Of a stretch of 32,000 bases of DNA, positions 3,836 through 32,000 are shown piece by piece. The position numbers and the translations under genes are program-made. Below the pieces are notes generated by a model. That model was not told the origin of the DNA. It saw only the letters and a program-made list of their open reading frames with translations, and made no database searches. The first letter of the stretch is position 1. Each line of letters opens with the position of its first letter. Source of the DNA: Candidatus Absconditicoccus praedator (lineage in GTDB: Bacteria; Patescibacteriota; Gracilibacteria; Absconditabacterales; Absconditicoccaceae); the NCBI RefSeq assembly GCF_021057185.1, contig NZ_CP054059.1:840001-872000 (forward strand). Reading direction: 5' to 3'.

Positions 3836-4030
3836 ATGTGAGAATTTAAATTAGATAGGGGTATATATACGAAGAAAATATTGGAAAAGTCTATTAAGGA
3901 ATTTGAAGATTATTGCTGAAAGAAAATAGATTATGATGAAAATAAAACTGAATTTACTTTGAAGTGTGAAGAAGATGATTTTGTTGATATAGTAGATAAT
4001 TATATTTATTTGTATAATGAAGCTAATTAG
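3836..4030 (+). CDS. 64-aa protein, truncated paralog of the N-terminal half of the downstream HxsD-like protein
   Basis: ATG 3836 to TAG 4028-4030. LDRGIYTKKILEKSIKEFEDY...DDFVDIVDNY aligns with VDGKIFDKKTILRAAYELVDK...DGIVDSF of the next gene. Stop lies 1 nt before the next ATG. Confidence 0.45.
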
Positions 4031-4031
4031 A

Positions 4032-4562
4032 ATGGAAAATTTTGTTAAAAAAATAGAAAAATGAACATTTAATTTTGAAATGGTAGTAGATTGAAAAATC
4101 TTTGATAAAAAGACTATATTAAGAGCTGCATATGAGCTTGTAGATAAAGTGTATATGTTTTTTAAGAAAGATGGGGATGATTTTGTTGTTCAGTTCAAGC
4201 TTAAAGATGAAAAACTAGATATGGATGGTATTGTAGATTCTTTTTGAGAAGAGTTGGTGTTTCATGATTTGAGGTCTCAGATAGATAAAAAAACAGGTAA
4301 AATGAAGGAAAGAATTATGGAAACAGCTTTAGGTTATGGTTTAACGTTAGAGGATGTTAAGTTAGATCTAGAAAAACTTCTTCCTTGATCGAACCCTTGA
4401 TCTCTTGATTGATGAGATGAGTGAGATCAAAAACAAAAGTCTATTGATGAAATAATGAAAGAAATAGAAAGTGATCCTGATTTTGAGGATGATAAAGATG
4501 AGATTTTGTGAATACTTAAGGAAATAGAAGAAGATGAGATGGAAAATAAAAAAGAAGGATAA
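4032..4562 (+). CDS. hxsD: HxsD-like His-Xaa-Ser system protein (176 aa) with acidic C-terminal tail
   Basis: ATG 4032 to TAA 4560-4562. Segment EELVFHDLRSQIDKKTGKMKERIMETALG resembles, from memory, the LLNDYxLRE signature region of the HxsD family (TIGR03976). Lies directly upstream of the HxsB-like and HxsA-like genes. Confidence 0.55.
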
Positions 4563-4591
4563 TTATTTACATTTATATAATCTTATTGGTG

Positions 4592-6010
4592 ATGGAAAAA
4601 ATCAATCTAAAAAATAAAAAAATATTGCCATTTAAATTTAAAAAACTAAAAAGTTGAAAATATTTTTTGAGTAATGATTTTTGACAATGGTTAATATTGT
4701 CTGAAAGAGAATTTAATGATTTTATTGATTGAAAAACTTCTTCTGAATTGGAAGATAGGTTGGTTTCAGCTGGTATGCAAAAATCAAGTAGATTAGATAA
4801 AAATGATGAAATGTATATTAAATATCTTGCTTGAAAATGGTTGAATAGATATCATTATATAATGCAATGACCAAGCTTGCATATAATAGTATTAACGTTA
4901 GCATGTAATCATTCTTGTAAATACTGTCATGCTAGTGCTAAAATCGATGATTCATGAAAATATCATTTATCAAATGAAAAGATAAAAAAGACTATAGATG
5001 TGATATTTAATACAACTGCATGAGCTATAGATATAGAATTTCAGTGATGAGAACCAACTGCTAATTGGGAAGGTTTGAAGTATGCTGTTGAATATATTCA
5101 TGAAAAAAACAAAGTGTATAATCTAAAAGTAAATATAAACTTAGTTTCAAATCTTACAATGATTGATGATGAGAAGATGAACTTTTTGTTAGATAATTGA
5201 GTAGATATTTCTACTAGTATAGATTGACCAAAAGAAGTTCATGATTGGAATAGAGCTTGGATAGGTGATACAAGTAGTTTTGAGACTGTTTCAAAGTGGG
5301 TTAAAAAAATTAATTTTGAGTATGAGAAAAGGTGACTTGAGAAAAAAGTATGAGCTATATGTACAGTTACAAATAAGCTTCTTGATAAACCACAAGAACT
5401 AGTAGATACTTATATAAGTTTATGACTAGATAATATATTTGTAAGACCTTTAAATCCTTATGGTATGGCTACGAAACTATGGGATAGTATAGGATATAAT
5501 TATGAAGAATACTGGAGCTTTTATGAAAAAATGTTAGATTATATAGAAAATAAGCAAGAAAAATGAATAAATATATCTGATACATACTCTCATAAAATAC
5601 ATTGTTGAAACTTAAGATCATCTAAAAGAATAAATTATATGGAAGAGAGGAGTCCTTGTGGTGCTGTGCTTGGTCAGGTAGCCTATAACTGGGATTGAGG
5701 AATATATACATGTGATGAATGAAGAATGCTAGCTCAAACTTGAGATTGTTCATTTAAGATATGAGAAATTGATAATAGATCTGCTGAAGAAATATATAAA
5801 TCTATGGTTTTAGATGTTGTAACAAAGGTTATGTTGTCTGCAAGTATTATAGACTATCTTCCTGGTTATGACACCAATCCAGTAAGTAATTATATATGAA
5901 CTTGCCCTATATACAGTTATACAATTAGTTGAAATATTAATAGTAAGTACAAAAAAGAAGATAGGTTTAAGCTTCAAGAAGATACTCTTGAAAGACTTGT
6001 AGATCAATAA
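4592..6010 (+). CDS. hxsB: HxsB-like radical SAM maturase with C-terminal Cys-rich (SPASM-like) region, 472 aa
   Basis: Read codon by codon from ATG 4592 to TAA 6008-6010 with no TAA/TAG. Motifs CNHSCKYC and QGGEPT (tga tga gaa cca). C-terminal CGAVLGQVAYNWDGGIYTCDEGR...GDC...GTCPIY. Immediately precedes the His-Xaa-Ser repeat gene. Confidence 0.75.
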
Positions 6011-6035: not shown

Positions 6036-6500
6036 ATGATACATAAGAAAAAAAATATTAACTCAATGGTTAGACATGAAGATCAAAAGGTTTCTGGTAA
6101 AAAAACAAATTTACCTTTATATGTTTGAGCTTTGTTTGCTGCAGGAGCGTCTTCTGCATGAGTGTCTTCAGAGGAAAATATTAGTAAATATTTTGAAATA
6201 GAGTCTGCTTATGCTTTTAATTATGGTGTTAGTAATGATAGTAATACCCATCATACAGATACTGATGATAGCTGATTTGATAATGTTGAGGTTGAAATAG
6301 ATCAAAAAACTTTTACTATTGATAAAAATGTGAATGGGCATATTAGTTGATCTATAGATACAAGAAATTATGTAGGCTTATCTCATTGAAGTCATGGTAG
6401 TCATGCTAGTCATTGAAGTCATTGAAGTCACTGAAGTCACTGAAGTCATTGAAGTCACTGAAGTCACTGAAGTCACTGAAGTCACTGAAGTAGGTGGTAA
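6036..6500 (+). CDS. hxsA: HxsA-like His-Xaa-Ser repeat precursor protein, 154 aa
   Basis: ATG 6036 (alternative ATG 6066) to TAA 6498-6500. Hydrophobic N-terminal segment LPLYVGALFAAGASSAGVSS. C-terminus LSHGSHGSHASHGSHGSHGSHGSHGSHGSHGSHGSHGSRW. Confidence 0.85.
6381..6488 (+). repeat. 12 tandem 9-bp units (ag/tc)t-ca(t/c)-(tga/ggt/gct) encoding Ser-His-Gly/Ala
   Basis: Direct reading: tct cat tga, agt cat ggt, agt cat gct, then nine copies of agt ca[tc] tga. Lies inside the hxsA-like CDS. Confidence 0.95.
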
Positions 6501-6527: not shown

Positions 6528-7970
6528 ATGTTTACAAATAAAGTGTTTGTTATGTTTTTTTCTTTAATATTATTCTTTTTTCTTGTAATATTTGTTTATT
6601 ATTTCTTAGTTAATGATAGGTCTATACATGAAAGTGATGGAGAATCTGCTTTGAATCAAGATGATGATAGAATTGAATTAGATGAGGAAAATGAAGAGGA
6701 AAATGAAGAGGAAAATGAAGAGGAAGAAGATTATGTAGAAAGTGTTGAGAATGCTCTAGGTTCAGATTATCTTGAAAGAGAAAGAGAACAATTTTGAGAA
6801 GATTTTAATAAAAATAGGCCTTTGACAGATGAAGAAATAGAAGAAACAAAAAAAATACTAGTAGAAGAGTATTGAGTTGATTTAGATGAACACAATAATA
6901 TAGAAGAACTTATAAAAGAAAATTATGAGCAAATTACTGTCGAATGAGGATTTGAAGTTGGTCGTGATTTGTCTAGTTCTGAAAGAGAACTTATAATATC
7001 TATTTTAGAGGATCATGAAGAAGCTTGAGATATACCAAATTTATCAAATCAACAAAAAGAAAATTTTGCTTATTGGATGGAAGTGGAAGATTTTCGTTAT
7101 TTTGTTAATAATCCTATTTATTATTTAAAAAAGTTTTTTAATGAACATGAAGATATAGATCATGATTCTGTTGAGCTAGAATTAAGAAATTTTATAAATG
7201 AACAAATAAATAAATGAACTTTCCCTAAAATGTCTAATAAAGAAATTAATAATTTTGTATCTTATATAGAACCTAATGATAAAGAAAATTTTATGAAAAA
7301 CCCTGAAAAATATATTGATGAATTTATTAGTGAGCAAAAAAGAAGTAGAGATTATGTTATGTCAAGCTGAGAGTATAAATTATGGAAGATGTTTTTAAGT
7401 TGAAATTCAGATGAAGCATTTGAAAAATTAAATAAGACTGCCGAAGAAGAATGATATAGAACTGATATATATGCAAAAATATTTAAAATATACAGTGACT
7501 ATATTTTTGGAACAAATTATTTTGAGTCAGAAGAAAAAGAAAGATTTTTTAGTTGTTTATCAACTTGAACTTATAATGAATCATTTGATGATGAAGTATT
7601 AGATAAGATTTGTGAATGAAAAGATGAAATTATATATTATGATGATGATTGAGAAGTTTTTGTTAACTATTGATTTGTTAATTATACACTTAATTATTTA
7701 AAAGAATTAAATGATTGAAATGAAGACAAATTAACTGAAATTTTGAATACTAATTATAATCATAACAACTTAAAAAGTAGTACATGAGAGAATTATGATC
7801 ATTGAAAAAAAATTTTATATTATTTAGTTTGAAAAGTAATTATTTGATATGATATAGATGTTATAAAAAATGATTATGATGAAATAGAACATTCTTTGGA
7901 AAATAACTGAGATTGTGAACAGATAAGTGATTCTAATTTAAAAAATTATTGTGAAAATATTTTTTATTAA
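6528..7970 (+). CDS. 480-aa membrane-anchored, highly acidic protein of unknown function
   Basis: Start matches track ORF 6528-6797. Read through in-frame TGAs line by line to TAA 7968-7970. N-terminal TM helix FVMFFSLILFFFLVIFVYYFLV, then EENEEENEEENEEEE. C-terminal module is paralogous to CDS 17773-18600. Confidence 0.7.
6684..6719 (+). repeat. 3 perfect tandem copies of 12-bp gaggaaaatgaa (EENE) plus a degenerate fourth unit
   Basis: Direct reading of gaggaaaatgaa x3 followed by gaggaagaagat, inside CDS 6528-7970. Confidence 0.9.
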
Positions 7971-7988: not shown

Positions 7989-9074
7989 ATGCTAAAGAAA
8001 TATTATTGACCCTCGACTGAACGATGAAATTTAAAAGAAATAATTGTATGAGATGTAGAAAACTTTAACTTAAAAAATATTGAAGAAACATTTAAAGTTT
8101 TGTTTTGAGAAAATTTGAGGCATAGTACTTTTGAAAATTTTAAAGATTACCGTGTTGATTCACAAAAAATTAAAGAAAGACAGGAAGATTTAGATAATCT
8201 ATCAGAGCTTTTGAAAAAGCTTTGAGTGAAAGTTTATAGACCTGAAAGATTAGAAAGGGTAAAGGCTTTCAGAGGCCCATATTTTAAAGGTGTGATGTCA
8301 TCTGCTGCCAATCCTAGAGATTTGATTTTTGTTTATAAGGATAAAATTATAGAAAGCACTCCGTGAGGGGTGAACAGATATTTTGAAAAAGATTTATATT
8401 ATAAGATATTACAGGAAAAATTTGAAGAAGGAGCAGTATGGCTTTCTGCTCCAAGTCCTTCTTTTAGAAAAGGTCGTTTTGATTTTAAGGAATGGGATGA
8501 AAAAAGAGATTTTAAAAATTTTGATAGGTTAAAATATGATATAGTTTTTGAGGCAGCACATATGTTAAAATTGTGAGATGATATATTGTTTAATATATCA
8601 AGTTATATGCATGAGTTGTGAGCTGATTGGATGCAAAAAGTTTTGTGAAGCGATACAAGAATACATAAGGTTTATTACTTAGATGACAATCATATTGATT
8701 GAAAATTATCAGCTCTTAGTAGATGAATATTTTTGGCAAACAATGAATTAATGCAAAAAGATATTAAAAATTATTTGCCCAAGAAATTTCATGATTGGAA
8801 AGTAATTTATACCTGAGAAGAATCTGGGAAGTTTAATCATAACTCTTATTTGGATACTGATATGAACTATATTCAGCTTTGTAGTATGAGATGAGCAAAT
8901 ACTAATGTTTTGTCTATAAGTGAAAACAGAGTATTGGTTATGGATTATGCAGAAAAAACTATTAAAAAGCTGGAAGAAAATGGTTTTGATGTAATTCCAG
9001 TTAGAATGAGACATTGTGAATTGTTTGGGGGATGATTACATTGTGCTACTTTGGATTTAAAAAGAGAAGATTAA
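7989..9074 (+). CDS. Amidinotransferase-family enzyme (AGAT / StrB1-like guanidino-group transferase), 361 aa
   Basis: ATG 7989 to TAA 9072-9074, in frame with track ORF 8370-8576. Motifs ANPRDLIFVYKDKIIESTPGGVNRYFE...GAVWLSAPSPSF, DDNHIDG, and C-terminal FGGGLHCATLDLKRED, which matches the catalytic-Cys end of glycine / inosamine-phosphate amidinotransferases. Confidence 0.85.
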
Positions 9075-9079
9075 TATTG

Positions 9080-10012
9080 ATGGATAGACCTTTATTATTT
9101 GAAATAGTTATAACAAATTGATGTAATAAAAGATGTCCTTATTGTGATATTAATTTTGAAAGATGATTTATAAAAAATGAAGTTGTTGATAATTTCATTA
9201 AATCTATAAGAAATTATGATTGAGAGTTAGGGTGAATTCATATCAATTTTTTTTGATGAGAGCCTTTGTTGTGAAAACAACATATTGATCATGTTTTAAA
9301 ATCATTAGAAGAAATAAAAACAAAAATAACATATAGTTTGGTTACAAATTGATGGTTAATAGATGATTTTATTATAGAAAGAATATACAAATATGATATT
9401 AAAGTAGATATTAGTATAGATACTATAAATAATGATGTTTTGAAAGAAAATAAACATATAAAAGAGATTGCAAGCAGAGAAAAGACAAGTGTTAATTATA
9501 TATTTGTTCCTTGACAAATGAGTAATATTGAGGAAACAGCTGCTGTTATGAATGGTATCTGATTTGAAAATATTAATATAATACCAGTATATACTACTAT
9601 GAGTTGGAACAATGAAAATATAAAAATATTAGCAAAAAAAATTAATCAGTTTATCAAAATAAGTAAATCCAAAAATATATGATATTTTAAGTATGATAGA
9701 TGATTTTCCAGAGAAAGACAGTTTATATTAGATGTGTGAGGAGAAATATATCAGGATGTAGATAGTGATATTCGGCTTCAAAAGCAATATAATATTATTC
9801 CTGAATTTCTTAAAAAAAAGGTAGAAAATGAAATGTATCTATGAAATATAAACTATCAGAATTTAAATGAGATTATATGTTGATATGATGAGAGCGTTAT
9901 ATACAATTTGCTAAAAGAATTCGAACTTGAAATTTGAAAACAAAAAGAATATAAGAAAATAGATAAGATAATAGATTATTTTAGTATAATGACCAAAGCT
10001 AAGGATAGATAA
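9080..10012 (+). CDS. Radical SAM protein, 310 aa
   Basis: ATG 9080 to TAA 10010-10012. Motifs CNKRCPYC and FFGGEPLL (tga tga gag cct). Confidence 0.85.
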
Positions 10013-10039: not shown

Positions 10040-10927
10040 ATGAAAAAAAAAACTTCGGAAGTTACTACAGTTACCAGATGAATAGAAGTTGAACTAACAA
10101 GTATATGTTCTCTTAACTGTGAATTTTGTATTAAAAGTTATAGAACAGAGTTTGGTAACATGGATTTTGATACTTTTTCTAAAGTTGTAGATTTTATAAA
10201 ATTTCTTTGATGTATGGAAGTGGATATATCGTGAGTTGGTGATATTTTTCAAAATGATTCTTTGTATGAGTTTATAGATCATTTATTTGAAAAACTTCCT
10301 AATATAGATGCAGTTATTCCTACTAAATGACAGGATGTAACAATGGAAGATCTTAAAAAAATAAAAAGTTATAATGATAAAGGGTATAATATTACATTGA
10401 TGGCATCTGTAATATACTTAACTAAATGGAAATTTGATAAGTTTGTTGGTAGAAATCAATATGAAAAATTTGTTAAGTTTATAGATATGTTGAGGGATTC
10501 AGGAGTTAACTTTTCTCGAGAATTTGTGATACTAAAGAATAATTTGGATGATTTTGAGAAATTTAAAAAATTAGCTGAAAAAATAGGAAAAGAGTATGGA
10601 ACCTTGTTGGCATATAATTTTTGATGAAATCTTTCAGATGAAATTCATAAAAAATATTTTGATGAAGAAATTTTGAGAGATTATTTTGAATATAGGTCAA
10701 AGGAAGATGTATGTGAGGTGATGAAATATGATCATTTTTTTGTAGATTATAAAGGAGATGTATATATTTGTGCTAATATGGGTATAAATCCAGATGCATT
10801 GCTTTGAAATATAAATGATGTTTATCATGATTTTAATATTTTGTTAGAAAGAAAACAAGAATTTAGAAAAAAATATCATGATATTTGTAATAAATGTTTC
10901 TTTTATAAATATAAACTTCATGATTAA
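10040..10927 (+). CDS. Radical SAM protein with C-terminal Cys motifs, 295 aa
   Basis: ATG 10040 to TAA 10925-10927, in frame with track ORF 10343-10624. CSLNCEFC, then later CEV...GDVYICANMG...CNKC. Confidence 0.8.
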
Positions 10928-10929
10928 AA

Positions 10930-12303
10930 ATGATAACTCATACTTTTTATGCTTTAGTCTTATATCAGGCCCAAATATTATACAATCAAGATCTTTGAAA
11001 TGGTTACTTTCTTTTTGATATAAAAGAAAAAACTATGTGAAAAATAATTGTGGAGTTTAAAAAATGAAATAAAAAGAAAGGTATTTTATTTGTGCATAAA
11101 GATTTTAATACTGACAGAGTAGACTATCAAACAAATAATTGGTTTATTGTGTGAGAAAAGAGTTTGGTAGAATTTGTTTGAAAGAAAATATTAGATAATG
11201 AGCATGAAGATTTTAATTTTTTTAAGACATCTGAAGAATATATATGAAAAATATTTTGAGTGGTGCTTACAATAACAACTCATTGTAATCTGGCTTGCTA
11301 TTATTGTTTCAACGATTATGATTATAATTTAGATCAAAGAAACTTTATAAAACCTTTAACTTTTGAACAAATAAAGTGAATAGTTGATGATTTGTATAAA
11401 AATTGATGTAGAGATATTATAATTTCATGATGAGAACCCTTATTGCATTACGATTTTTTTAATATAATTGACTATTGTTTAAATAAGTGAATATATGTTC
11501 GTGTAAATACTAATTGAGATCTCTTGAATTCTAGAATAGTAGATAAAATAATTCAGTATCCTATAAACTTGATGGTTTCAATACACGAATTTAATGAAAA
11601 AGATTATGCATATACAAATGTTAGATGATTCAGTGAAATTTATAAAAAAGATGTGCCAGAAGAAGTTTTTTATAAAAAGTTTAGAAATAAAATAGAAAAT
11701 TTAAAAATAATATATAAATATCCTAATATTAATTTAGAGTTTATGACTATACTTGATAATAAAAATATTATAAACCTAGAAAAAATATATGATTTTTGCT
11801 TGAATCAATTTTGAATAACACAGTGGCATTTTTTTAGGCTATATAGTACAAAAATTTCTAAATGAATTTCAAAATGAATGATGTCACTTGCTATAAGAAA
11901 ATTGTACAATCTTAATAAAAAATATAATGTTGATTATAAAATAGTTGATGCAGTTCCTTTTTGTGTTACTAGAAAAACAGATTTGGCAGAAAAAGTAATT
12001 GAATGAGAATTAGCAGATAATCATAATGTAAAATTTATTATTACCAATGAATGAGGTTTTCAATTGATGTCATGATTTGATACTGTTGTTTGAAGTGTAT
12101 TTGAAGAATCTATTTCAGAACTTTTGAGTAAAGAATTTACTCAAAAGATGCTAAATAATTGATTTCTTCCAAATGAATGTTTGGATTGTGTGTATAAAAA
12201 TCATTGCAAGGGTGGAAGTAGAATGGAAGCACATATAGCTACCTGAAGCTATGCTGATTTTGATCCTTTATGAAAAATAGCAAATAAAAAATGTCAGATA
12301 TAA
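10930..12303 (+). CDS. Radical SAM protein with about 105-aa N-terminal extension and C-terminal C-x2-C-x5-C-x-G motif, 457 aa
   Basis: ATG 10930 (2 nt after the previous stop) to TAA 12301-12303. Motifs CNLACYYC, SGGEPLL (tga tga gaa ccc) and CLDCVYKNHCKGG. Confidence 0.85.
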
Positions 12304-13127
12304 GAATTGTAAATATATGTAATAATAATTGTATATATTGTCTAGAATCTTCTTATAGAAAAAAAAATAAGTATGAATCTTTAGATTATATTTATTTTCA
12401 AATAAAAGAAATTTCTAAAAACACAGATTTTCTATGAATTTTTGGATGAAATCCTTTGTTGCATCCAAATCTTTTGAATATCTTAAATTATGCAAGAACT
12501 CAAGGCATTAACAATATTTCCATACTTACTAATACTTATAAACTGGATAAAAATTTAATAAGTGATTTAGAAAAAAATTGACTAACTTGAATATGATTTT
12601 ATTTTAATACTTTTGATAAGTATACTCATGAATTAGTTAGTTGATGAGGAATATGATATGAGGAGTTATTAAAAAATATAAATTTAATTTCAAAATCAGA
12701 TCTATCTTATAAAGCAATTATTCATATAAATAAACAAAATATCGAAAATTTATATAAGGATGTTTTTATTTTATACAAAAAATTTGGTGTAGAAAGTTTT
12801 GAATTTATTTGATTTTTTCCATTTGACAAACCTTATGAAAAAAATAATAGAAATTTACTTTTTCTTGATTATAATAACTACAGAAAAAGCATAAATAAAT
12901 TGTTTGATGTTTTAGATAAAATTTGAGTAGAAACACATTTTATAAAATTTCCAAGAAGTTTTTTTGGGAACTATTGAAAATATTATGATTATAAATTTTG
13001 AGTATATGAGCAATTATGAAAAGAAGATATACAAAGGTTAAAAAAAACAGAACCGTATTGTAAAATAGAAAATAGGTGTAAATTTTGTTTTTTAATAGAT
13101 TATTGTAATAATGAATGAATAGCATAA
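12291..13127 (+). CDS. Radical SAM protein, 278 aa
   Basis: ATG 12291 overlaps the upstream stop by 13 nt; TAA 13125-13127. Motifs CNNNCIYC, FGGNPLL and C-terminal CKIENRCKFCFLIDYC. Confidence 0.8.
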
Positions 13128-13993
13128 CATTATTTTTAACTAATAAATGTAATTTGCATTGTGATTATTGTATAGTTAATATATGAAATAAATCGATTAA
13201 CGAAAACAATTTTTCTTGTCTATATAATTTTTTAAGTAAAAACATAAAAAAAATAGATACTATAAAATTTCTTTGATGAGAGCCATTGATTGAATATAAT
13301 AAAATTAAAAAAATAGCTAATATTTCTAAAAATATTAATTTTGAATTGGCTACTAACTGATATTTTATTAACAAGGAAATTGCTGATTTTCTGAAAGAAA
13401 AAAACTTCAAAGTTAACTTGTCTTTAGATTTTCAAAATAAAAACTATACTGAGAAATCCGAATATTTTAAAGGTTATAAAGATTTTTATTTTTCTTTGAC
13501 TTTGACACCTGAAAATCTTGATAATGCTTATGAATTTGTCAAAGGTTTTTATAAAAAATGATTTCGTAATTACAATATTTTACCTGTATTTTATAATAAT
13601 CTTTGGACTGATTCAGATATTGAAAAATTAAAATTATTGTATAAAAAACTTTTATCTTTGAAAATAGGATATAAAGAACTTTTTTTTGAGTGAGTTAATG
13701 ATGGGGACGAAAAGTTGTTGAATTATGATAAGATTTTTATAAATTACGATTGAGAAATTTTTTTATCAGATGTGGTGGAAAACTATATAGGAATATGATG
13801 AGATCTAAAAGATTCTGCTAAAATATGAAATATCAAAGATGTTGAAAATATAGATAGTTTGAATAAAATTATTAAAGAAAAAGAATACTTAATAGATAGT
13901 TATTTAAAAAGCTTTGAAGAAAAAGAAAAAAAATTATTTGATGTTGTGGATTATTTTTCAACTTATTATAATAAAATAAGTAAGTATTATTAG
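13115..13993 (+). CDS. Radical SAM protein, 292 aa
   Basis: ATG 13115 overlaps the upstream stop by 13 nt; TAG 13991-13993. Motifs CNLHCDYC and LGGEPLI (tga tga gag cca). Confidence 0.8.
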
Positions 13994-17772: not shown

Positions 17773-18600
17773 ATGAAGAAACAAAATTGATATGTAATAA
17801 TTAAAATTCTGTATAAGCTTGAAGAAAAAAATAAAATACCCAAAATCAGACTTCCTGAAAAAAAAAGGTTTGTAGAGTGGTTAGATAAAGACTTAATAAA
17901 GTTATTTTTTTGTGAACCACAAAATATTATAAATAGGTTTTTATCAGAAAAAAATTATAATGAAATAAATGGATCAATAATATCAAAAATAGATTATACT
18001 CATTTAAAGAATCTTTTTAACTTAAATTTAGATTCTTCATTATCCGAACTTTATGAGACAGAAAGGAAAGAATGATATAAGACAAGTGTTTATGCTTTTT
18101 TATTTAAAATTTATAGTGATTTTTTATTCTCTACAAATTATATAAAATTGAAAGAAAAAGAATCTTTATTCAATCATTTAGAAGTATGAAAAAATAAAAA
18201 AAAATTTAAAAATTCTATATTTCAATATATTTATGAGTGAGAAGATGAAGTTATATATTTTGATAATGAGTGAGAAGTGTTTGTGAATTTTTGATTTGAA
18301 AAATATGCTTTAAAGTATTTTAATAAATTAAAACTTTGAAAATCAAATTTTTTACCGGATATACTTTTTACAGATTTTGATAACATAAATAAAAGGTCAG
18401 CCATTATTCAAAATTATAATTATAATAAAAAGATAAATTATTATTTGTTTGGAAGAGCAATTATTAATAATGATTGGTCAGAGACTGAAAAATTATTTTG
18501 TCAAGTAGAAGATGTATTCGATAGCTGACAAAAAGTTGCTAAGATAGAGGACAAAAATTTAAGATTTTATTTAGAAAAAGAACTAAAAGATATAACTTAA
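17773..18600 (+). CDS. 275-aa hypothetical protein, soluble paralog of the C-terminal module of CDS 6528-7970
   Basis: ATG 17773 to TAA 18598-18600. Shared blocks EGY(K/R)T, FKIYSD, TNY, EG(E/K)DE(V/I)IY(F/Y)D and GEVFVN(F/Y)GF. Confidence 0.65.
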
Positions 18601-19773: not shown

Positions 19774-20736
19774 TTAAACATTATAAATAAATGGTGCTCT
19801 ATTGACAGTGGTATTAAATATATTGATGTCTTTAGATAATCAATATATTTCTCGTGGAGTTTTATAATTTAATGCCGAATGAAGTCTTTCTTGATTATAT
19901 TTATCAATATATTCTTGCAAACAATTATATGCTTCTAATGGAGTTCTATAATCATATATATATACTTCTTCTTGTTTTATAGTCCTAAAAGTTCTCTCTA
20001 CTATAATGTTGTCTATCCATCTTCATTTTCAATCCATGCTTATTTTTATTCCATTTTCTTTTAGTTTGTTTGTATATCTTACACTTGTAAATTGACTTCA
20101 TTGATCAGAATTAACTATCTCTGGATGTTCATATAATGCAAGTGCTCTATTTAGTGCACTTATACAAAATTCTGACTCTAGTGTTAATGATAATTCCCAA
20201 GATAGTATTGCTCTACTATACCAATCAATTATTACTACCAAATAAACCCATCAATGTTTTAAACGGATATATGTTATATCTGTTGCCCATACTTGATTTG
20301 GTCTTGTGATTTCTAGGTTTCTTAATAAGTATGGATATTTTTCATTTTCTTTATTAGGTATACTTGTTTTTTTTCAAGGGTATATAGCTGTTAGTCACAT
20401 TTCTGCCATAAGACTACTGACTTTCTTTCTTCAAACATTAAATCACTCTCTTTTTAGTTGGTGTTTAATTCTTCTACTTCAGTAATATGGATGTTCTGTG
20501 TATATTTCATCAATTCTATCCATAATTTGTTTTTCTTTATCTGACACCTGTTTTTCATGATATAAGCTCGATTTAGATATTCATAATAATTCAGATTGTT
20601 TATTAATAGATATTTCTTTGTTATCCTTTTCTATTAATTTAATTTTTTCAGAATATGTTAGGTAATTCTCCAATTTTTTTTTCCAGCCACTCTTTTTCCA
20701 TAGTGACTTTTCATAATTTTGAATATAAATGTTCAA
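19774..20736 (-). CDS. IS3-family transposase OrfB (DDE / rve integrase core); open frame, probably expressed as an OrfAB fusion
   Basis: Frame open 20736 to TAA 19774-19776. Motifs WATDITYI, NSDQGSQFTS (the Gly is TGA), ERTFRTIKQEEVY and HSALNYKTPRE. Confidence 0.85.
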
Positions 20737-27730: not shown

Positions 27731-28984
27731 TTAGCTTTTGATTCACTCTTTTCTATTTTTTGCAATTTGTAATAATTCTTTTGGGCTCAAAAATATTAAT
27801 CAGTAAAATCATATATTTTTTTCTTCTCAATTGTAATATAAGTACCTATCATCTTCAATTATAATATTATTTTTGATTAAGAAATCTATTTCTTCTTTAA
27901 ACATGTCTTTAATGTTTTTATTGAACTTTTTTTTGAAATCTATTTTGTCTATTTTATCTTGAAAGGATTTTAAAGTATATGATAGAATCTCATAATTATT
28001 ATCTAATTTTTCTATAGAAAAAATAAATTTTCAATTTTTAAAAAAACTTGTTTCATAACTTCATAGATTTCGAACTTTAGAAATGCTTTTGTATCAAACA
28101 CCAAAAATAGATTTTTTTTCATTAGAATACAATCAAAAGCTTTTTTTACTGTTTCAAGATTTTTTATGTTTAAAAATATATCACAACACATTGTTCAATT
28201 TTGTTGTGTTATATTTGTTTTTTATTTTACTGCCTTTAATTGTTTTTGTAAATAAATTTTCCAAATTGTCATAAAATTTATCTCAATATTTTATATATAT
28301 ATTATTTGTCTTGTTTTGTTCTTTCATTACAGTGTAATATGTGATGCTATCAGGCTCACACTCTTTTAATATATTTAAATTACTTATAAAATCACTTATG
28401 TCATCATCTCATAATCATAGAACTAAATCTGTATTTATGAATTCTATTCATACTTTTTTTCAGTAACTTATAAATTCTTTAATTGTTTCTTTATCTACGT
28501 ATCTTCTATTTTCTTTTTCTAGTGTGTTCTTATTGAATGATTGGACTCAAAAGCTTATTCTATCAAATCATAGATCTTTTACTTTTTTTATTTTAGATAA
28601 TGATGTAGAGCAGGGATTTAATTCTATTGTTTTTTGATAGTCTTTATTGAATTTAAAGTTTTTAAAAATATATCAAAATATGTCCTCCATCTCACTTTCA
28701 TTTAATGTGCTAGGAGTTCCTCATCAAACATAAATTCAGCTAAATTCAACTTTCTTAAATAAATCTATAAAATTGTATAAAAAATTTTTAACATCTAAGA
28801 TATAATCTTTTTTTTGTTTTTGATTTGTTAGCAAAAGTTTGTCATACATACAATATTTACAAATTTTTTCACAAAATGGAATATGTAAGTAAAAACTAAT
28901 GGGATGGTTGTTGTCTATAATCTTTAAGTGTTTTTTTCGTAGATTTATTATTTCTGTTTTGCTTACTTCTTTTTTTTTGTTCAT
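27731..28984 (-). CDS. HemN/HemW-family (coproporphyrinogen-III-oxidase-like) radical SAM protein, 417 aa
   Basis: Extends track ORF 28736-28984 through TGA to TAA 27731-27733. Motifs SFYLHIPFCEKICKYC, YVGGGTPS, ISFGVQSF and DLVLGLGDDD. An alternative in-frame ATG lies at 29065. Confidence 0.85.
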
Positions 28985-29151
28985 ACTAAACCTATCAAAT
29001 AAAAAATCATGTCATGGATTTATCAATTTTTTTATTATTCTTCTTTTTTTTTCAATAGAATTCATGTAGAGTAAATAAAATCTAAAAAGTTCTTGAAAAA
29101 ATATTATTTTTTTATAAACTTAATTCAAGTTTATTTTGATATAAATATTGA

Positions 29152-30045
29152 ATGAAAAGAGCTGATATAAAGGTTTGATTTTCTTGTAATAATTTTTGTG
29201 AATTTTGTGTGCAGTGAGATAAAAGGTTTTTGTTTAAGCCACGTTCATTAGAAAAAATAAAAGAAATCACAAAGCATGAATATGATAATTGATGTAGGGA
29301 AGCAGTTTTTACTTGATGAGAGCCAACTGTTCATCCGAAACTTGTGGAGGCGGTTTCATACGCAAGTAGTATCTGATATAAAGAAATACAAATACAATCA
29401 AATTGAACAAATTTTGATGACATTAATTATTGTAAAAGTCTTATTAATGCTTGAGTGACACAGTTTTGACCTTCTATTCATTGAGCTAATCCATCTACTC
29501 ATGATGATTTGGTTAAAACTAAATGAGCCTGGAAAAGGGTTGTAAAATGAGTACATAATCTAAAAAGATTAAGACAAGCTATAATATTTAACATTGTTGT
29601 TACTAAGAAAAATTATAGAGAATTACCTAAGCTTTCAAAAATACTGTGTGAACTGTGAGTTTCTCAACTTCAATTTGCTTTTGTTCATATATTATGATCT
29701 GCTGATAAAAATAAAGTAAAGATTGTTCCTAAAAAGACTGATGTGATGCCATATATAAAAAAATGAATAGATATATGAAATCTCTATAAAATTCCAGTTT
29801 TTACAGAAGCTATTCCATATTGTCTGATGCAGTGATATGAGTATGCAATAGCAGAGAATATAATGCCAGAAACAACAGTTATTGATGCTGAACATACTAC
29901 AGAAAGTTATAAGGATTATAGAGTTGCTGAATGAAAAGTAAAGGTTGAAAAATGTAAGACTTGTAAATACTTTAAGTATTGTGAGTGACCCTGGAAGGAA
30001 TATCCTGAAATATATTGATGGGATGAGTTTGAGCCAATTAAATAA
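29152..30045 (+). CDS. Radical SAM protein with C-terminal C-x2-C-x5-C-x-G motif, 297 aa
   Basis: ATG 29152 to TAA 30043-30045. Motifs CNNFCEFC, TGGEPT and CKTCKYFKYCEGPW. Confidence 0.8.
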
Positions 30046-30066: not shown

Positions 30067-30894
30067 ATGAAAAAGATTGTTATTTACTGAAAGTGATGAA
30101 TTTGAAAATCTACTGTTTCAACTCACTTAAGTGTATATTATGCTCTTAATTGATATAAAGTGCTTCAAGTTGGTTGTGATCCCAAACATGATTCAACAAA
30201 AAGGCTGCTTCCTAAAAATACTGATATAAAAACTGTTATAGATATAACAAAATATTATGATATAGATGAGATTTCTAAAGATATGTTTGTATATAGTTGA
30301 AAATTCTGAATAGATTGTGTAGAGGCTGGTTGACCAATTGCATGAATTTGATGTGCCTGAAGATGAATATCATTAATGTTTGAGATTTTTGAAGAAGTTG
30401 ATTTGCTGCAGACAAGTAACTATGATATAGTTATATTTGATGTACTATGAGATGTGGTTTGTTGATGATTTGCTTCGCCATTAAAAATTTGATTTGCAGA
30501 CAGTGTTTATCTGGTTACCTCTGAAGAAATAATGTCTTTGTATGCAGCAAATAATATTGCTAGAGCAGTAGTTAATTACTCAAGAAATTGAATTGATTTA
30601 TGAGGATTGATTTTAAATCAAAGGAGTAATGATGTTGATATTGCCCCAGTAAAAGGTTTTGCATATAGTATATGAACTAAAATTATATGAACTGTTCCTA
30701 GGTCTAATGAACTTTTGGAGATGGAAAAAAAATGAAAAACAGTTTTTGAAGATGATTCTTTAAGTTATTCCACTATTGTAAAACATTTTAAAGGGATTGC
30801 AGATAATATTGATGAATCTAGATGAGTTGTGCCTACTCCGTTTGATGACAAAGAATTTGATGACTTTGTTTTTTACAACTTTCAAAAAAAGTAA
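30067..30894 (+). CDS. NifH/BchL/CfbC-family nitrogenase-iron-protein-like ATPase, 275 aa
   Basis: ATG 30067 to TAA 30892-30894. Walker A YGKGGIGKST (30085-30114, all four Gly are TGA), VGCDPKHDST, CVEAGGPIAGIGCAGRGI and DVLGDVVCGGFA, so both [4Fe-4S]-ligand Cys are present. Confidence 0.9.
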
Positions 30895-30896
30895 TT

Positions 30897-32000
30897 ATGA
30901 ATAGGGTGTTTTTTTGAGATTATAATGCAAAAAAAATATTTGAAAAATTATTTAACTTAAAAAATCTTGAGATAAAATTTATATCAGCAACACCTGAAAA
31001 TATTTGAATATTTATACAAAAAAATAACTGCTCTCTATACATTAAATTAAAAAACAATGATTGAGTTTGCGTTATTGATTCAAATCAAAAACAAGATGAT
31101 ATATTTATTAAAGCAAAAGAATTTTTTGAAAAAAAAAGTTATTATTGATTTTTTAATATGATTAAAAAAAATTCTTTACAATGAAGTAGTTTAGATATAA
31201 ATGAACAAATTGTTTGATATATTGATGCATGTTTTATAATGTGAGCTTTAAGATCGCATCAAAAATTTCAAAAAAAAGAACTAGATAATATTTTAGATTT
31301 TACATTCTTTTCAGATTATGTGTATGAAAGAAAAGCCAGAGATACTCTTGATTATGAGTTTTCTTCCTGTTATATAAATCATAGTGAGTTGGAGTGTTAT
31401 ATTTGTAATGCTGAATCATTGTTGGGATGAAGTTCTAAGTGAATGAGTAGTTTTTTTGAATTTGAAGATCAAGATAATTATAGTAGTGATTTTTATGAGT
31501 CCGACTATGTTAATGAAGATTGATATTTTACAAATATAACTCAACATGATACAATTGTGGAATGATGAATTTACAAAATAGAGGAAATATTGGATAATCT
31601 TGATTTTGAAAAATATGATGTAATTACAATTAATCAAACTTGTACTCCTTCTATAATTGGGGATGATTTGAGATCGCTTATTAAAAGGTATCAAAAAAAA
31701 ACAAATACGCCTATTGTTTATAAGGATCAAAATGCTTTTGATTCGTACAAAGAATTAGAAGTTCTTGTGAAAAAGAATAAAAATTCTCATAAAATAAAAA
31801 ATAGTTTAATATATGTGTGAGTTTGAGATTATGATTTTATTGAGGAATCAAGTAATTTATTTTGATGAATCTGAATTCGTTTTAATGGTAATATTGTTCC
31901 AAAAGTAAATAAGAAGTTGATAGATATGTACTGAAGATCAGAAACACAAGTTTTATTTAAAAGTGATTTAAATGAAGAATTAAATCATATCTTTGATGAT
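30897..32000 (+). CDS. Nitrogenase component-1-type (NifD/K/E/N, BchN/B, CfbD-like) oxidoreductase with N-terminal extension; 3' end outside window
   Basis: ATG 30897 (2 nt after the NifH-like stop), in frame with track ORF 31590-31820 and open to the window edge. INHSELEC matches the H-x4-C spacing of HGPxGC. ITINQTCTPSIIGDDL matches the TCxxxxIGDD cluster-ligand motif. Confidence 0.65.

Follow-up and report, generated by a model that had tools for sequence, protein, structure and literature searches.

A predicted amidinotransferase of the phage gp086 type in a His-Xaa-Ser radical SAM gene cluster of Candidatus Absconditicoccus praedator

Described systems and the present locus

The HXS system of Escherichia coli, HxsD-HxsB-HxsC-HxsA, is an antiphage system (Li et al., 2026; PMC13128918). 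Of the published HXS systems, more than 99.8% consist of four genes; they contain no amidinotransferase, and that paper never mentions one, the word stem "amidino" occurring in it 0 times (PMC13128918). A stretch of 32,000 nucleotides from the genome of Candidatus Absconditicoccus praedator, analysed here as a whole and called the window, contains genes of this His-Xaa-Ser (Hxs) type together with a gene for a predicted L-arginine-dependent amidinotransferase, the subject of this study. Like E. coli HXS, the window encodes HxsD, HxsB and an HxS-repeat protein, HxsD and HxsB both scoring above their family cutoffs. Unlike it, the window lacks the canonical adjacent HxsC and carries 13 further radical S-adenosylmethionine (radical SAM) genes and the optional amidinotransferase.

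An amidinotransferase among radical SAM genes has been described in Campylobacter phage CP220, in which five radical SAM genes and a putative glycine amidinotransferase form an interchangeable module of unknown function (Timms et al., 2010; PMC2853527). Like the window gene, gp086 of CP220 lies among tightly packed radical SAM genes that run in the same direction. The pairing itself is therefore already published for phages (PMC2853527), and it is the Hxs partner context that is new, as is the recurrence of the Hxs-plus-amidinotransferase arrangement in two other independent recoded clusters. Clusters of the pheganomycin and thiovarsolin types also contain an amidinotransferase and an ATP-grasp enzyme beside a ribosomal peptide. 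The pheganomycin type is a precedent for an amidinotransferase whose substrate is a small molecule, joined to the peptide afterwards, and in the thiovarsolin cluster deletion of the amidinotransferase left the products unchanged. These clusters are, however, actinobacterial, with partner enzymes unrelated to those of the window. Full-text literature searches retrieved no description of an amidinotransferase that acts on peptides or that lies within an Hxs cluster.

The evidence presented below suggests, with a probability that we put at about 0.55, that the gene encodes an L-arginine-dependent amidinotransferase of the gp086-type subfamily, which performs an optional tailoring step in an Hxs cluster whose HxsA4 precursor ends in an SRW tail, and whose acceptor is likely a small amine or an intermediate made by radical SAM enzymes.

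Genetic code, fold and active site of the amidinotransferase

The G+C content of the window is 24.5%. Long open reading frames (ORFs) are nearly absent under translation table 11, and dense coding returns once TGA is read as a sense codon. Under table 11 the frame at positions 7989–9074 contains 14 in-frame TGA codons and a single terminal TAA; under code 25, in which TGA encodes Gly, it is a single intact ORF of 361 amino acids. The translation contains all the motifs listed in a preliminary description of the gene made from the sequence alone: NPRD (residues 108–111), IIESTP, GAVWLSAPSP, DNHIDG and GGGLHCATLDLKR. The use of code 25 rather than code 4 for this gene is supported by its own codons: where the gene has one of its 14 TGA codons, 55% of the alignment cells of non-recoded homologs hold Gly and 4% hold Trp, and opposite its four TGG codons 81% of them hold Trp. 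In the HxsA4 gene, 10 of the 12 Xaa codons of the His-Xaa-Ser repeats are TGA, the remaining two being GGT and GCT. The homologs in public protein collections numbered P0002–P0029 were mostly deposited with Trp at TGA sites, for example with WWWLHC in place of the invariant-Gly GGGLHC found elsewhere. Their translation with code 4 instead of code 25 lowers family-model scores, and none of them has a precomputed Pfam match.

The product of the gene was confirmed as a member of the AGAT/StrB1/HsvA/SxtG amidinotransferase family of the pentein superfamily. A phmmer search of PDB sequences retrieved HsvA (7e-39), SxtG (8e-35), AGAT (about 1e-29) and StrB1 (8e-28), with residues 10–360 covered, and no hydrolase. 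An AlphaFold model based on 120 homologs reached a predicted local distance difference test (pLDDT) score of 92.8 and a predicted template-modelling (TM) score of 0.92. When this model was used as a Foldseek query, ranks 1–7 were all amidinotransferases (TM 0.80–0.87, E 1e-26 to 1e-30), headed by the same four enzymes, whereas the hydrolases DDAH, ADI, ArgZ and agmatine deiminase followed at TM about 0.5–0.6 and E about 1e-9 to 1e-11, with DDAH and ADI at TM about 0.55 and E about 1e-11. The AGAT/StrB1-type assignment of the preliminary description thus holds for sequence and structure alike. The match to Pfam PF02274, proposed there as a check, exceeds the gathering cutoff (25.7 against 22.8 bits) and covers only the C-terminal 55 residues.

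Among solved structures the best match, with 28% identity and a TM score of 0.82, is the polyamine amidinotransferase HsvA (PDB 5WPI) from Erwinia amylovora, whose Cys, His and Asp residues align with those of the window protein, although its third triad residue is Asp. HsvA belongs to the hsv virulence gene cluster, which is not known to contain radical SAM genes or a precursor peptide. AGAT (1JDW), StrB1 (1BWD) and SxtG (6U1R), with glycine, inosamine phosphate and an aminoketone as their acceptors, have the fold and active-site residues in common with the window protein at an identity of only 24–29%. Relative to AGAT, the window protein carries a 10-residue insertion at 281–290, modelled at low pLDDT.

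Residues Asp170, His303, Asp305 and Cys407 of AGAT align with Asp111, His235, Asp237 and Cys352 of the window protein, all four of which are invariant in the alignment of 120 homologs; Cys352 lies within a C-terminal GGGxHC motif. The position of AGAT Asp254 is occupied by Glu188. Of the Asp-His-Cys triad expected in the preliminary description, the Cys and His therefore stand, together with both guanidinium-binding Asp residues, and the third member is Glu instead of Asp. Glu is also present at this position in 35 other homologs, nearly all from one clade of proteins of about 394 amino acids. Because this clade has Glu and Asp is present in the rest of the recoded clade, the family appears to tolerate either residue, and Glu188 is probably a conservative substitution. 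It was rejected both as a distinguishing feature of the clade and as an indication of altered chemistry, being unique within its own clade and common in another. The position of Arg322 of AGAT, which binds the donor carboxylate, holds Leu in the window protein; it was discarded as a diagnostic site because HsvA and SxtG also lack Arg there.

The presence of Glu at the third triad position bears on the alternative that the fold is used for hydrolysis, as in deiminases and dihydrolases, or for housekeeping arginine catabolism. The triads of ADI and DDAH have Glu at this position, and the only NCBIfam matches of the protein are very weak C-terminal ones to DDAH. On the other side stand the phmmer and Foldseek results, in both of which transferases outrank hydrolases, and the occurrence of the same Glu in a large clade of amidinotransferase-type proteins. 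Best matches to ADI- or DDAH-type hydrolases, the outcome named beforehand as contradicting the assignment, were looked for in both searches and transferases were found. A housekeeping function is further opposed by the distribution of the gene: the source genome is complete, as a single contig of 1.13 Mb, and searches of 60 relatives, among them 36 members of the same family, did not find the gene, so that it is not a housekeeping gene. Both the hydrolytic and the housekeeping role were rejected on these grounds and are very improbable.

The activity and the use of arginine as donor are predicted from the family. By this prediction, free L-arginine would be bound through Asp111 and Asp237 and attacked at its guanidino carbon by Cys352. 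Ornithine would depart, leaving an S-amidino enzyme intermediate in a ping-pong mechanism, and His235, backed by Glu188, would help a primary amine to accept the amidino group, yielding a guanidino product heavier by 42 Da.

Occurrence with Hxs genes and candidate acceptors

Among 400 other genomes of the class, a close homolog was found in one, G214, with 48% identity and 9 in-frame TGA codons. Public protein collections contain a clade of about 27 proteins at 46–53% identity, mostly with the W-for-G signature of recoded genomes; beyond it lie a shell at 34–43% identity and then canonical amidinotransferases at about 30–34%. In the maximum-likelihood tree, the recoded clade is monophyletic (support 99 in the Shimodaira-Hasegawa-like approximate likelihood ratio test, SH-aLRT), with the window protein branching off first. 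A clade of 18 sequences that contains Bdellovibrionota is sister to the recoded clade (joint support 99), and a 73-sequence group splits from the canonical clades with support 92; CP220 gp086 is not among the tree sequences.

A TGA-tolerant DNA pattern search of metagenomes of the Joint Genome Institute (JGI) yielded four loci, of which two overlap with identical sequence. The cluster of G214 comprises HxsD, a small ORF, HxsB, HxsA, an HxsC-like radical SAM gene, further genes, the amidinotransferase, a radical SAM/SPASM gene like W_10040 of the window (Table 1) and a 457-aa radical SAM gene like W_10930. Metagenomic locus L088 contains HxsD, HxsB, HxsA, radical SAM genes and the amidinotransferase, and L086, with 88% DNA identity to L088, extends further 3' with orthologs of W_9080 and W_10040. 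In the window, G214 and L088 (with L086), the amidinotransferase gene is co-located and co-oriented with HxsD, HxsB and HxsA. Its placement within an Hxs/radical SAM operon, as first described for the window, is therefore right and is repeated in two more independent clusters. In each of the three precursors, a hydrophobic segment at the N-terminus and a VNGH motif are combined with an (HGS)n-R-W end, and a short GFO/IDH/MocA-type oxidoreductase is common to all three clusters. The G214 cluster also includes a DUF3050 protein (L084:2021-2842, 162 bits), which has no counterpart in the window.

The spacing of the genes in the window is as it had been reported: the stop codon of the preceding gene ends at 7970, leaving 18 nt before the amidinotransferase gene, and 5 nt separate its TAA from the ATG at 9080 of the first of five radical SAM genes, which do come next on the 3' side. 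The gene would be co-transcribed with those surrounding it.

The enzyme is an optional add-on, present or absent, to one type of Hxs cluster and not a regular member of Hxs systems. HxsB was found in 33 of 401 class genomes, in 30 of them above the family cutoff, and only two of the 33 (G000 and G214) have the amidinotransferase. Locus L108 (G384) has no amidinotransferase and contains HxsD, HxsB, HxsA(SRW), an unknown gene and genes like W_9080, W_10930 and W_12291, which is the gene order of the window. The rarity of the gene and this equal architecture without it are the reasons for regarding the enzyme as an optional tailoring step. None of the window genes strictly co-occurs with the amidinotransferase, homologs of W_9080, W_10040, W_10930 and W_12291 being present in enzyme-free loci as well. 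Genome G032, whose HxsB is 80% identical to that of the window, was considered as a natural knockout and proved uninformative, its Hxs genes lying on a 2.5-kb contig with unassembled neighbours.

The HxsA tails were surveyed at the first 8 HxsB loci and then at all 38 places. After 8 loci, at which the other tails were GQW, AAY and GWC, the amidinotransferase appeared linked to the SRW tail. This link was rejected at 38 places, where six SRW-tail loci (G335, G290, G384, G263, G225 and G391, all ending in HGSRW) lack the enzyme both locally and genome-wide and 11 further loci without the enzyme have other tails. An SRW tail is present at 3 of 3 loci with the enzyme and at 6 of 17 without it, a hypergeometric P of about 0.07 by a hand calculation that ignores relatedness and includes the near-duplicate loci L113 and L114. 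Over loci L091–L121 of the class, the tail types following (HGS)n are SRW, GQW, GGWC and A/S-Y. In G290 two SRW precursors are encoded in tandem, and in G230 the two precursors differ in their tails. Tail type and the accessory radical SAM gene set may be correlated, genes like W_10930 and W_12291 having been seen with SRW tails.

These tails bear on the proposal that the enzyme acts on the penultimate Arg of the HxsA end (HGS-R-W), either taking it as the donor, with conversion of peptidyl Arg to Orn, or rebuilding Arg. The modified motif SHRSS of E. coli also contains Arg (PMC13128918). The SRW tail is present in all three enzyme-bearing clusters, and in two of their precursors its Arg is the only one. 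Against this proposal stand the six SRW-tail loci that have no enzyme and the P value given above, and we know of no member of the amidinotransferase family that uses peptidyl arginine. Action on the penultimate Arg is thus improbable.

Relatives outside the recoded genomes place the window protein, by sequence, in the uncharacterised, radical-SAM-associated subfamily of the CP220 gp086 type. A tblastn search of GenBank phage records matched Campylobacter phages CP220 and F379 with 45% identity over 98% of the query (E about 1e-97), and CP220 gp086 (YP_009169220, "possible glycine amidinotransferase") is the closest annotated relative, with 45% identity over 353 residues. A collection of viral contigs scanned with the single amidinotransferase protein gave no match. 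A pattern scan of GTDB genomes required GGN or TGG and hence reached only non-recoded genomes; the nearest homologs found there, at 34–39% identity, belong to Peredibacter, Halobacteriovorax and other Bdellovibrionota, and loci L003, L004 and L006 bear the motifs of the sister clade of the recoded clade. In Peredibacter the amidinotransferase gene follows five consecutive radical SAM genes with overlapping stops and starts. On its 3' side are a glycosyltransferase (GT)-like gene, an unknown gene, genes for a DegT aminotransferase, a PIG-L deacetylase, an epimerase and a polysaccharide deacetylase, and a radical SAM gene. In CP220, four radical SAM genes precede gp086, which is followed by another radical SAM gene, two GT-A-like genes and a PAP2 phosphatase gene. 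The two modules are orthologous, with 31–40% identity between the radical SAM genes and 26–34% between the GT-like genes.

ORFs with a CxxxCxxC motif number 1–8 per locus at subfamily members and usually 0 at 66 canonical amidinotransferase loci. The partner kept by the subfamily across lineages is a battery of radical SAM genes, whether or not Hxs genes are present: in the five Bdellovibrionota genomes tested, neither HxsB above cutoff nor HxsD was found. In Peredibacter sp. a 199-aa protein (L003:2072-2671) with His/Cys-rich ends and a C-terminal CxC-H-type run is encoded beside the first radical SAM gene of the cluster; it is a candidate protein substrate.

This conserved association with radical SAM genes instead of Hxs genes would fit a free-standing small-molecule pathway that merely adjoins the Hxs genes. 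Its product, unconnected with HxsA, would be a guanidino metabolite or a sugar-like molecule carrying decorations, of the sort proposed for the modules of phages and Bdellovibrionota. The overlap of the Peredibacter gene with a GT-like gene, followed by the DegT, PIG-L and epimerase genes, points the same way, and the top structural match, HsvA, amidinates polyamines, for which no dedicated supply is needed. The recoded clusters, however, give a different picture. By BLASTP, the amidinotransferase alone is shared between the CP220 module and the clusters of the window, G214 and L088, any other resemblance being generic radical SAM similarity. The GT-A-like and PAP2 phosphatase genes of the phage and Bdellovibrionota module, and the DegT, PIG-L and epimerase genes of Peredibacter, have no homologs detected in the window, whose partners are instead HxsD, HxsB, HxsA4 and HxsC-like radical SAM genes. 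A profile of six GT-like partners, searched against 293 ORFs from the recoded clusters, matched none at E <= 10, and no aminotransferase was found in these clusters. The radical SAM genes of the window are either HxsC-like or of types present in enzyme-free Hxs loci, and in all three recoded clusters the amidinotransferase gene sits between the Hxs core and Hxs-associated radical SAM genes. An independent pathway is accordingly rather unlikely.

Within the Hxs cluster, the acceptor would most likely be a small amine or an amine-bearing intermediate of the adjoining radical SAM enzymes, and not the His-Gly-Ser repeat; an HxS repeat contains no amine. A small amine or radical SAM-made intermediate is favoured because the characterised relatives AGAT, StrB1, HsvA, SxtG and CyrA all use small amines as acceptors, HsvA in particular polyamines, and because of the pheganomycin-type precedent. 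The preliminary description had pointed to the Lys residues and the penultimate Arg of the precursor. That hint is unsupported, as the mature region has no conserved Lys and SRW tails often occur at loci lacking the enzyme, whereas its statement that no substrate can be inferred from sequence is upheld.

Several observations weigh against assigning the enzyme to such a tailoring step. The remaining 26 proteins of the recoded clade carry Asp at the position of Glu188, and Glu in place of the triad Asp may mean reduced or altered activity. In the three recoded clusters, neither an aminotransferase nor any other gene that would supply an amine acceptor was found. A sugar-type acceptor, to which the relatives in phages and Bdellovibrionota point, is likewise unsupported there, because aminotransferase and GT-like genes were not found.

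The absence from the recoded clusters of amine-generating and sugar-transfer genes, which would point to a small-molecule acceptor, agrees with a peptide-directed enzyme that amidinates an amine of HxsA4 and so produces a guanidinylated mature effector. The amine would be the N-terminus exposed when the leader is removed, the side chain of a Lys, or one that radical SAM enzymes have introduced. The gene lies two genes 3' of the precursor gene in one tight operon, the association with HxsA(SRW) is seen in three independent clusters, and a positive charge on E. coli HxsA has been proposed to be important for function (PMC13128918). Contrary evidence comes from the small-amine acceptors of all the characterised relatives, from close subfamily members in clusters and genomes without Hxs genes, from the restriction of the enzyme to two of the 33 Hxs systems of the class and from the lack of a conserved Lys in the C-terminal half of the three precursors. 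Amidination of the precursor is therefore possible but unlikely. It would be equally tentative to see here the first amidinotransferase acting on a ribosomal protein, guanidinylating a new N-terminal or radical SAM-made amine of the matured HxsA4. If the HxsA protein were the acceptor, the enzyme would represent a new kind of post-translational modification enzyme. Guanidinylation of HxsA4, by an enzyme type that phages also carry, would then adjust the charge of an effector of the Hxs type at the surface or in the periplasm of a UGA-recoded episymbiont.

As an enzyme the protein is unremarkable, its family being well understood, and the value of the gene lies in what it connects: it ties an amidinotransferase subfamily of Campylobacter phages and predatory Bdellovibrionota to the His-Xaa-Ser system. 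Because equal cluster architectures exist with and without the enzyme, a comparison of their products offers a direct route to the acceptor of the subfamily, which could be revealed by a 42-Da shift. The same shift could label the product of the extended Hxs clusters.

Other genes of the window

The coordinates of the Hxs genes, the amidinotransferase gene and adjoining genes are given in Table 1.

Table 1. Coordinates of the amidinotransferase gene, the Hxs genes and neighbouring radical SAM genes in the window.
Feature	Position	Strand	Remarks
Small HxsD-like protein, 64 aa	3836..4030	+	NF038315 22.7 bits, below cutoff; small ORF at equivalent position in G214 and L088
HxsD	4017..4562	+	TIGR03976 54 bits, cutoff 50
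HxsB radical SAM/SPASM maturase	4586..6010	+	TIGR03978 414 bits, cutoff 370
HxsA4 precursor	6036..6500	+	NF038313 56.7 bits, cutoff 55; N-terminal hydrophobic segment, VNGH motif, C-terminal (HGS)n-R-W
Acidic membrane-anchored protein, 480 aa	6528..7970	+	One N-terminal hydrophobic segment; no family match
Amidinotransferase	7989..9074	+	361 aa under code 25, 14 TGA = Gly; Asp111, Glu188, His235, Asp237, Cys352
Radical SAM gene (W_9080)	9080..10012	+	Orthologs in G214, L086, L103 and L108
Radical SAM/SPASM gene (W_10040)	10040..10927	+	G214 ortholog 33% identity, next radical SAM gene 3' of amidinotransferase
Radical SAM gene, 457 aa, NirJ/AhbD-like (W_10930)	10930..12303	+	Orthologs in G214 (45% identity) and L108 (46-47% identity)
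Radical SAM gene (W_12291)	12291..13127	+	Weak HxsC-like match
Radical SAM gene, last of five tightly packed	13115..13993	+	
HxsC4/HxsC-like radical SAM gene	29152..30045	+	NF038332 141 bits, full-length but below cutoff; counterparts directly after HxsA in G214, L088 and L103

The window contains 14 radical SAM genes, which span 26 kb (4586–30045), five of them directly 3' of the amidinotransferase gene. At least four, at 29152, 21516, 23827 and 22770, match HxsC4 or HxsC best, below the cutoffs, which suggests an expansion of HxsC-like paralogs. Another, at 27731–29065 on the minus strand, is HemN/HemZ-like. A methyltransferase, a U32-like protein and a split pair of phosphoenolpyruvate (PEP)-utilising proteins are also encoded. 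Homologs of the acidic membrane protein preceding the amidinotransferase and of the protein encoded at 17773–18600 were not detected in G214, in L086/L088 or at any of the 35 other Hxs loci.

An IS3-family transposase gene (19774–20736, minus strand, 289 bits) lies in the middle of the radical SAM cluster and separates two blocks whose G214 counterparts all fall within one cluster of ~17 kb; the element may have rearranged the cluster. Directly after the last radical SAM gene, at 30067–32000 of this recoded genome of 1.13 Mb, follow a gene for a NifH-family ATPase (PF00142, 267 bits) and a nitrogenase-component-1-like gene (PF00148) that runs past the end of the window. This NifH/NifD-like pair could serve as a reductase for the cluster rather than in nitrogen fixation.

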